Assembly (NCBI GenBank): GCA_963807605.1
Contig: CAWECG010000003.1
Span: forward strand, 416,001 to 480,000
DNA length: 64,000 nt
From: Candidatus Bathyarchaeota archaeon
GTDB lineage: Archaea; Thermoproteota; Bathyarchaeia; 40CM-2-53-6; RBG-13-38-9
Reading direction: 5' to 3'
Shown: one piece after another, positions 5,410 through 42,335 of the stretch
Position numbering within the stretch: the first letter of the stretch is position 1
How the letters are laid out: every line of letters begins with the position of its first letter
Position numbers and translations under genes: made by a program
Notes under the pieces: generated by a model
Databases searched by the model: none
What the model was told of the DNA's origin: nothing
The model's input: the letters and a program-made list of their open reading frames with translations, nothing else

Positions 5410-5529
5410 TGGCGGGCCCGCCGGGAATTGAACCCGGGACCCCGACCCAGGACACACTTTGTGTCTCCTTCCGGGTGGCCTCCAAAGTCGTTAAAAGCCC
5501 GGTACTCTACCTGACTAAGCTACGGGCCC
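5410..5529 (-). tRNA. tRNA-Lys(UUU) with two introns (37/38, 15 nt; 43/44, 28 nt), CCA encoded
   Basis: Spliced product GGGCCCGTAGCTTAGTCAGGTAGAGTACCGGGCTTTTAACCCGGGGGTCCCGGGTTCAATTCCCGGCGGGCCCGCCA folds as a cloverleaf; both introns fit BHB geometry. Confidence 0.92.
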
Positions 5530-40548: not shown

Positions 40549-41409
40549 ATGCTGCCAGATCCTCGTTTTCCTGCTGTTTCCGGGGGTATCGTGTACGTAG
40601 GCTCAGGGGATGGTAAGGTGTATGCGTTGAATGCTGCTACAGGAGCCAAGGTATGGAATTACGCAACAGGCGTCCCTGTCGCGTCTTCTCCTGCTGTTTC
40701 AGGTGGTATCGTGTACGTAGGCTCATTTGATGGTAATGTGTATGCGTTGAATGCTACCACAGGCGCCAAGGTATGGAATTACACAGTGCGCTACGGTGTC
40801 ACAACTTCTTCTCCTGCTGTTTCAGGAACCGTTGTGTACGTAGGCTCATTGGATGGTAAGGTGTATGCGTTTGCACCTACTTCAGCTCAGGTGGCTTGTG
40901 CCACGGGCACTGGGACGGGGACGTTCACTATGAGTCCGAGTACTGCTGGAGGATTCACAAGTCTAACCGCTTCAGCATCATCGAGTGTCTCACCCGCTCC
41001 GCCAGCAGGGTTAACGTTTCCTGACGGCTTATTCTCCTTCACAATCTCAGGTCTCGCACCGAGGGCAACTGTTACAGTAACCCTCAAGTTGCCTGCTCCG
41101 TTGCCGGCGGGTTCCTTCTCGTATTGGAAGTTTCAGTCTGGTGTGTGGAGTCAGTATTCGTCGGCTTCGCTTGATTCCACTCGAACCATTATCACGTTAA
41201 CCTTCACCGCATCAGCCAGTGGCACAATTACTGACCCTGGGGGCCCAGCAATCGTGCCGCCTCCTCCGTCCGCAAGACCGGTCGGAGGCGTCGTGGAACC
41301 CGTCAACAAACTCACACTTCTCACACCATATTTGGCCTTCTTCGGAGTGGTCGCGGCTGTTGCAGTCGTCATTGTGACGGATAGGAAACGCAGAGAACCC
41401 ACAGACTAG
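40549..41409 (+). CDS. PQQ-type beta-propeller repeat surface protein with C-terminal anchor (N-terminally truncated)
   Basis: SSPAV.GG.VYVGS.DG.VYA repeats; PVGG + TM + basic tail. Confidence 0.75.
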   Translation: MLPDPRFPAVSGGIVYVGSGDGKVYALNAATGAKVWNYATGVPVASSPAVSGGIVYVGSFDGNVYALNATTGAKVWNYTVRYGVTTSSPAVSGTVVYVGSLDGKVYAFAPTSAQVACATGTGTGTFTMSPSTAGGFTSLTASASSSVSPAPPAGLTFPDGLFSFTISGLAPRATVTVTLKLPAPLPAGSFSYWKFQSGVWSQYSSASLDSTRTIITLTFTASASGTITDPGGPAIVPPPPSARPVGGVVEPVNKLTLLTPYLAFFGVVAAVAVVIVTDRKRREPTD

Positions 41410-41720: not shown

Positions 41721-41914
41721 CGCAGTAGCACCTACTCTCCTTTGCATTAAAAAAACCTTTCAGCAAAGCTGCTTAGAGGAAACAGAGCCTCGCCGTTGTG
41801 TACCCAATAATCGGCTATTTCATCTAGTCGGGCTATCCGCAAAAGCGACGAACGAGAAAGGCTTTAAAGTTACTCTGAAACCTATAGACAAGCTTGGCTG
41901 GACTAATAGGCCGT

Positions 41915-42082
41915 GCCCAACCGTCATGGGTGCATAGAGGTAGTATAGTCTGGCCTAGTAAGCCTAGAAAGGCCTAGAGTGTACGGCTGTCACCCGTACG
42001 ACTTCCGATAGGAGGACGTGACGCGGGTCCAAATCCCGCCCTAAGGGGAGCGCTCAAAGCTCTCTCCTGGCGATGGGCGCCA
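41915..42082 (+). tRNA. tRNA-Asp(GUC) with four introns (41919-41937, 41961-41979, 42001-42020, 42043-42074)
   Basis: Spliced 78-nt GCCCAGGTAGTATAGTCTGGCCTAGTATGTACGGCTGTCACCCGTACGACGCGGGTCCAAATCCCGCCCTGGGCGCCA forms a full cloverleaf with CCA; three introns fit BHB well, one is relaxed. Confidence 0.88.
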
Positions 42083-42335
42083 ACCTCATTGCCCGCGTTC
42101 ACCACTCCAGAGGCAGTCGCTGAGCAGACTATTCTTTTGTGACCGCATGTGGCGGAAAGAATTGGCATCAACAAGCCAGCAGGTCAGTCATAGAGCTAAT
42201 TGGTGTTCAGGTCATTCAACCCGTTCTGTAATAAATATCTTCATGCAACAAGGTTGTATCCAAGTGGACAACTATTCTCTTCGGGAGAAGGAATGTTGGA
42301 GCCTTATTCCAGAATTGAGTATATACAGAGCGCGC

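Follow-up and report, generated by a model that had tools for sequence, protein, structure and literature searches.

The window analysed here is a stretch of 64,000 nucleotides (nt) from the 2.65 Mb assembly of an uncultured soil/wetland Bathyarchaeia archaeon, which comprises five contigs and is 94% complete. At 41915–42082 on the forward strand lies a region of 168 nt, the letters of which agree with an earlier description made from the DNA alone (hereafter the sequence-only reading), i.e., a tRNA-Asp(GUC) gene interrupted by four introns. The gene sits in an intergenic gap downstream of a beta-propeller protein gene (40549–41409, +). Its downstream neighbour, about 280 nt away, is an ORF for an IS-type DDE transposase (PF01609; 42360–42986, −). 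A 66-aa minus-strand ORF (41974–42174) covers most of the tRNA gene and was taken as spurious, having no Pfam match; gene callers may annotate this stretch of 66 codons as a hypothetical protein instead of the tRNA. Another interrupted tRNA gene is found elsewhere in the window (5413–5529, −), matched by the Rfam tRNA model with 51.4 bits over 117 nt and called by ARAGORN as a tRNA-Lys(ttt) with a 39-nt intron.

Joining the segments 41915–41918, 41938–41960, 41980–42000, 42021–42042 and 42075–42082 gives a product of 78 nt, which ARAGORN identifies as tRNA-Asp(gtc) with a normal cloverleaf, a 7-bp acceptor stem and regular D, anticodon and T arms. This result bears out the claim that removal of the four inserts leaves a 78-nt tRNA-Asp(GUC) with CCA. 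The spliced sequence carries the anticodon GUC (G34-U35-C36), the discriminator G73, C38 and G10-U25, which we take to be the AspRS identity set of yeast and bacteria, and its CCA is encoded. As had been proposed, all four inserts are BHB introns and none of them is at 37/38; the sites are 4/5, 24/25, 48/49 and 68/69, and the two acceptor-stem introns, at 4/5 and 68/69, lie directly opposite each other. With four introns, the locus falls among the multiple-intron tRNA genes, which are defined by at least two introns per gene and at least one outside 37/38. It is not a split or permuted tRNA gene, all of its exons being colinear and on one strand within 168 nt. The features of the locus are collected in Table 1.

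Table 1. Features of the tRNA-Asp(GUC) locus, with positions in the window
Feature	Position	Strand	Basis or remark
TATAGA box, probable archaeal TATA element	41883–41888	+	Conserved in 10/10 four-intron orthologues; neighbouring bases vary
5′ leader bases used by BHB1	41910–41914	+	−2, −1 (GT) in central helix; −5 to −3 (GCC) pair with G6, G7, U8
Exon 1, positions 1–4 (GCCC)	41915–41918	+	ARAGORN product; orthologue match
Intron 1, 19 nt, 4/5	41919–41937	+	hBHBh′ GTGC/GCAT; bulges CC|A, AG|A; H 4/4, h 3 bp, h′ 3 bp
Exon 2, positions 5–24 (rest of acceptor 5′ strand, D arm)	41938–41960	+	ARAGORN product; orthologue match
Intron 2, 19 nt, 24/25	41961–41979	+	BHB CTAG/CTAG; bulges TA|A, AG|T; H 4/4, h 2 bp, h′ 4 bp
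Exon 3, positions 25–48 (anticodon arm, variable loop)	41980–42002	+	GTC anticodon at 41989–41991
Intron 3, 20 nt, 48/49	42003–42022	+	hBHBh′ TACG/CGTG; bulges AC|T, AC|G; H 4/4, h 5 bp, h′ 3 bp
Exon 4, positions 49–68 (T arm, start of acceptor 3′ strand)	42023–42042	+	T-loop TCCAAAT; C55 at 42029
Intron 4, 32 nt, 68/69	42043–42074	+	hBHBh′ CGCC/GGCG; bulges CT|A, AT|G; H 4/4, h 2 bp, h′ 7 bp
Exon 5, positions 69–76 (GGGC, G73, encoded CCA)	42075–42082	+	ARAGORN product; orthologue match
Trailer element CCCGCGT	42092–42098	+	Complement of ACGCGGG at 42021–42027
TTCTTTT run, possible archaeal oligo-T terminator	42132–42138	+	Read from sequence; 3′ of trailer element

Without removal of the introns, the DNA gives no ARAGORN call, either with or without the intron option, and scores 17.1 bits against the Rfam tRNA model (threshold 29), with only the anticodon and T arms recognised. 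The locus is also absent from the 24 whole-genome Rfam tRNA matches. The expectation that standard scanners would miss the gene was therefore correct for ARAGORN and Rfam/Infernal. Weak matches of other Rfam models in the region (NLPC-P60, C/D-box snoRNAs and scr5239) were far under threshold and were dismissed. The TATAGA box, which we regard on the basis of its conservation as a probable promoter, lies 27–32 nt before tRNA position 1 here and 27–38 nt before the 5′ end across the ten orthologues; should it be the TATA element, only some 4–10 nt would be left for the leader, just sufficient for the intron 1 motif.

Every product-equivalent placement of the splice motifs was scored by the standard rule, which demands a 4-bp helix with 3-nt bulges and cleavage after the second base of the bulge. 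The BHB strings previously given could be confirmed for introns 1, 2 and 4, with central helices paired at 4/4 positions and 3-nt bulges. However, the description of intron 3 as relaxed is an artefact of a placement 2 nt too far left: at 42001–42020 the central helix pairs at 3/4 positions with an A-G mismatch, whereas at 42003–42022 the motif is canonical, with the exon helix CCCG/CGGG, and the product is the same. Among arbitrary (site, length) pairs in the window, a full hBHBh′ motif turns up at a rate of 4.6e-4, and chance can be excluded because the four motifs fall exactly where removal restores a tRNA. The sequence-only reading had also noticed that the helix of intron 1 uses the 5′ leader, and indeed the central helix is built from leader positions −2 and −1 together with G1 and C2. 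The leader sequence CCGT is invariant in 10/10 family members, and between families leader position −1 covaries with its intron partner, being T-A in the family of this genome (f1) and C-G in two others (f2 and f5).

When 40 relatives were searched at the DNA level, the same four inserts appeared in nine other species at 80–87% identity, and the four-intron layout is thus present in ten genomes (this one included) from six genera of one family, f1. Among these ten orthologues, the exons are almost invariant and the introns are variable with compensatory changes; one genus lacks the encoded CCA and has GCGCTA there. Two further genera of the same family (L011 and L012) have the 24/25 intron only, and their exons match the product at 75/78 and 74/78 positions, respectively. 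In two other Bathyarchaeia families, tRNA-Asp genes that have no introns match it at 66/78 and 61/78 positions, part of the mismatch being a reciprocal swap, A5-U68 versus U5-A68. Because relatives with one intron or none match the joined exons, every junction is confirmed.

The pairing of the splice motifs is preserved along with their position. In the alignment of the ten orthologues, 97% of the cells in the 43 proposed BHB pairs are standard pairs, against 31–51% in a control with the partners slid by 1–3 columns. Six BHB pairs change on both sides, although four of the ten aligned orthologues come from one genus and the number of independent covariation events is therefore small. Individually, intron 1 shows two compensatory pairs in h′ and is missing from the one-intron orthologues (L011, L012); intron 2 was found in 12/12 f1-family loci examined, with the central helix CCAG/CTGG in one genus; the central helix of intron 3 changes from TACG/CGTG to TATG/CATA in one genus; and intron 4 shows compensatory pairs in h′, where a strain variant (42047 G>A) converts a G-U pair to A-U.

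Other families carry tRNA-Asp introns in family-specific subsets, i.e., at 4/5, in the D-loop and at 48/49 in f2; at 4/5, in the D-loop and at 68/69 in f5; in the D-loop and at 68/69 in f7; and at 5/6, 48/49 and 68/69 in f9. The introns at 48/49 in f2 and f9 are unrelated to that of f1. These subsets indicate that the four sites are old and variably occupied, and that they are combined in f1. At a finer scale, strain contigs from four metagenome studies (soil, marsh, marsh and peat), which are 90–99% alike, cover the gene. They show zero exon differences; the differences inside the gene are confined to the loops of introns 1 and 2 and to two sites within the helix of intron 4, and the remainder lie in the flanks. 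No intron-less form was found among these strain DNA contigs, a kind of data that cannot show absence.

Splicing enzymes are encoded in the same genome. There are two EndA paralogues (PF01974/PF02778) of 188 and 175 aa, and an RtcB-type ligase (575 bits). The 188-aa protein is nearest to the catalytic (alpha) subunits of the Sulfolobus, Aeropyrum and Pyrobaculum heterotetramers (2cv8, 3p1z_B and 2zyz_B), whereas the 175-aa paralogue is divergent and also matches the Pyrobaculum structural subunit. We favour, with a probability of roughly 0.88, the reading of the locus as a functional tRNA-Asp(GUC) gene, present in a single copy and interrupted by four BHB introns that would be spliced by EndA and RtcB, with the removal of intron 4 assisted by the trailer. 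The exon/intron boundaries, the BHB geometry, the conservation, the covariation and the presence of the enzymes are read directly from the genomes; from these we infer that splicing takes place, in what order its steps occur and what the trailer does.

The four motifs span 41910–41941, 41953–41982, 41993–42027 and 42035–42077 and do not overlap. The precursor can thus form four hairpins in a row, a fold in which the acceptor, T and anticodon stems are all absent. The unconstrained RNAfold minimum of the precursor is free of BHBs, and imposing all four costs about 31 kcal/mol. Such an energy cost is usual, as the energy model penalises bulged motifs that are recognised by protein, and the unconstrained fold was therefore given no weight. 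In the pathway that we propose, the gene would be transcribed as a precursor of roughly 190–230 nt, which would present a row of four non-overlapping EndA hairpins, each with a canonical BHB, rather than a cloverleaf. A two-paralogue EndA of the crenarchaeal alpha-beta type would then cut in every 3-nt bulge, and RtcB would ligate the exons. Enzymes of this type are broad enough in specificity to accept non-canonical sites.

Introns 1 and 4 interrupt the two acceptor strands at one and the same step, that from pair 4-69 to pair 5-68, and exons 1 and 5 together make up the top four acceptor pairs. RNase P and 3′ trimming need the acceptor/T minihelix. Since the leader is part of BHB1 and the acceptor is split on both strands, both activities would be expected to follow the removal of introns 1 and 4. 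In particular, it can reasonably be inferred from the leader invariance and the covariation at −1 that intron 1 is spliced before RNase P cleavage, in line with the order suggested by the sequence-only reading.

The removal of intron 4 would pose a problem of its own, in that its motif would borrow the 3′ strand of the T stem: the central helix uses C63–C66 and hence competes with the T stem. The trailer element CCCGCGT lies ten to thirteen bases 3′ of the gene end and is the exact complement of ACGCGGG, which consists of the last two variable-loop bases (46 and 48) and the 5′ strand of the T stem. By pairing with this 5′ strand, CCCGCGT would keep the T stem from re-forming and would thereby spare BHB4. 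With BHB4 as the only imposed motif, RNAfold chooses the trailer of its own accord as partner of the T-stem 5′ strand, and this fold lies about 5 kcal/mol above the optimum found without constraints. Because the helix made by the trailer overlaps with the exon helix of intron 3, the two are mutually alternative, either of them occupying the T-stem 5′ strand; the trailer element is still there in families that have intron 4 but lack intron 3.

The distribution of the element follows that of the intron. CCCGCGT is invariant in 9/10 orthologues and matches at 6/7 nt in the tenth, while its flanks vary. Among distinct loci with a 68/69 intron (f1, f5, f7 and f9), 21 of 23 have a complement of 5–7 nt located 5–13 nt past the 3′ end, although the families that carry it are related and the co-occurrence hence represents only a few independent events. 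No complement in that position was found in any of 32 loci without a 68/69 intron, including those of the two f1 genera without intron 4. The register varies between families, being CCCGCGT in f1 and f7, CGCGT in f5 and AACCCGC in f9. On these grounds, we put at about even odds the proposal that CCCGCGT is a dedicated helper which holds the T stem open for the 68/69 splice motif.

The strongest alternative is that CCCGCGT has nothing to do with intron 4 and is instead a signal for 3′ processing or termination, a protein-binding site, or a sequence co-inherited from one ancestor. Several observations would fit such an explanation. Both the motif and its partner are constant within f1, so that the pairing is not proven by covariation; the carriers of the intron are phylogenetically related; two of the four f9 loci have no clear complement; and such a trailer is seen at no other T-arm site or tRNA gene of this genome. 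The last point should be read together with the finding that an intron immediately 3′ of the T stem occurs in no other tRNA gene here, and the single 7-mer match among 77 T-arm-like sites in the genome is not significant by itself. However, an unrelated signal would not be expected to keep its complementarity to the T-stem 5′ strand in differing registers across families, nor to be missing wherever intron 4 is missing, and it does not account for the choice of CCCGCGT as partner by RNAfold once BHB4 is imposed. The element also lies in no credible ORF. We regard an unrelated trailer as less likely than not.

If the helper role is correct, then, taken with the part that the leader plays in intron 1, heavily interrupted archaeal tRNA genes would depend on conserved flanking strands that act as stand-ins, the precursor would be a row of hairpins instead of a cloverleaf, and the trimming of the ends would be forced to come last. 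Other unusual flanks were observed among the relatives. The leaders of the tRNA-Asp genes in f7 (L014 and L019) and f9 (L065–L068) contain a spare copy of the acceptor strand, GCCCTGG or CCCGCCCTGGGCG, just upstream of the gene, and these look like ‘decoy strand’ leaders. In the trailers of two f9 loci (L065 and L068), a near copy of the T-loop and the T-stem 3′ strand, TTCGAATCCGC, is followed by a palindrome, CCGCATGCGG, and there is no plain complement.

The sequence-only reading had left to a genome search whether another tRNA-Asp exists; none was found in the 94%-complete assembly by anticodon-arm, BLAST and 37/38-intron searches. The genome contains 50 contiguous, well-paired GTC anticodon hairpins, and only the one at this locus has a T arm nearby; a well-paired hairpin at C4:409740, for instance, is without tRNA context. 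A blastn-short search of the genome with the spliced product returned, elsewhere, only T-arm similarity to other tRNAs. The search for GTC loops with a 37/38 intron gave no tRNA-like candidate. Four of these loops are near T-arm-like sites, of which two look like coding sequence on inspection and another was attributed, by coordinates alone, to the adjacent tRNA-Val gene. Introns 1–4 have no second copies in the genome that would indicate transposition. This is apparently the sole tRNA-Asp gene, a second copy being not strictly excludable at 94% completeness.

The Rfam tRNA model has only 24 matches in the whole genome, 19 of them at the gathering score and most of them 90–120 nt long, and the intron calls made by ARAGORN include many doubtful ones. 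Multiple introns probably hide much of the tRNA set of this genome.

One position of the product deviates from expectation. Elongator tRNAs almost universally have U54-U55-C56 in the T-loop. Here, the T-loop TCCAAAT has C at position 55 (42029) in place of the near-universal U, a one-base deviation by which function is not excluded. All other species examined, including those of the same genus, have U55 (TTC). C55 is not an assembly error, because it is found in strain assemblies from four studies. It could hint at reduced function; the options are that the change is tolerated, that a G18-C55 pair forms, or that the base is edited from C to U. In any of these cases, C55 offers a natural test of how dispensable U55 or pseudouridine-55 is.

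C55 and the 94% completeness of the assembly are also observations that would speak for a decaying or non-functional locus, with the working tRNA-Asp located in the unassembled ~6% or present in a form invisible to the searches. However, a decaying gene would hardly keep its exons invariant in strain contigs from four studies in which introns and flanks vary, and six genera retain the layout, with splice motifs that have undergone compensatory changes. All four strain assemblies have C55 itself, and the searches described above yield no other candidate. We consider decay of the gene highly improbable. Finally, the notion that the four introns are a chance reading of a non-coding spacer beside an IS element, which the silence of the standard scanners at the locus might seem to favour, is already refuted by the comparative sequence data, given the 80–87% identity and the exon-specific conservation shared with orthologous loci of nine other species, the four canonical hBHBh′ motifs against a background rate of 4.6e-4, and the near-identity of the product to intron-poor tRNA-Asp genes.

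The functional four-intron gene is therefore the reading that we compare with known systems. Older reviews give three introns as the maximum (PMC4033280), and the sequence-only reading had suggested that four may be unreported. This suggestion does not hold: PMC11291895 tabulates, in its Supplementary Data 4, four-intron tRNAs in the Asgard lineages Freyarchaeia and Atabeyarchaeia, and a preprint (10.64898/2026.10.13.758758) states up to five introns per tRNA in Asgard families. The multi-intron examples given there include Arg-TCT, Ile2-CAT and Leu-GAG of Freyarchaeia and Trp-CCA of Atabeyarchaeia (PMC11291895; 10.64898/2026.10.13.758758). A four-intron tRNA gene is thus unusual, and its kind is already reported for other archaea. 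Our literature search found no paper on multi-intron tRNAs in Bathyarchaeia and no published description of cis-acting flanking splicing helpers of this kind, and the trailer helper may be a new part.

The genes described in these Asgard papers resemble the present one in having several short introns at non-canonical positions with BHB junctions, in being partly missed by standard annotation, and in belonging to genomes in which most tRNA genes are interrupted. They differ in that they belong to another phylum, whereas the present gene is from Thermoproteota (class Bathyarchaeia), and in that the tabulated tRNA-Asp of Freyarchaeia has two introns (PMC11291895). We came across no helper pairings of leader or trailer in either paper (PMC11291895; 10.64898/2026.10.13.758758).

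With the Thermoproteales (Pyrobaculum, Thermofilum and Caldivirga; Sugahara 2007/2008; PMC4033280, PMC4090602), the present gene shares the phylum, the alpha-beta EndA and non-canonical BHB introns, several per gene. We note two differences: the reported maximum in Thermoproteales is three introns (PMC4033280), and their intron sequences recur between genes through transposition, whereas no intron paralogues are found here. In the split and permuted tRNA genes of Nanoarchaeum equitans, Caldivirga and Cyanidioschyzon merolae (PMC4090602), sequence outside the mature tRNA likewise builds a splice motif. Unlike in those genes, five colinear exons lie here within 168 nt and the leader is part of one helix, while the trailer, in our proposal, would have an indirect role, keeping the competing strand occupied without belonging to the motif.

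In the present gene, introns face each other across the acceptor stem, and the motifs borrow strands from the leader, the T stem and the anticodon stem. The gene may hence serve as a compact test case for how substrates are presented to EndA without a cloverleaf and for flanks as folding helpers. Since standard tools would report this genome as lacking a tRNA-Asp, completeness estimates and codon-usage inferences would be skewed accordingly. With this locus, Bathyarchaeia, which are very abundant in soil and sediment, join the Thermoproteales and some Asgard lineages as archaea with heavily fragmented tRNA genes.
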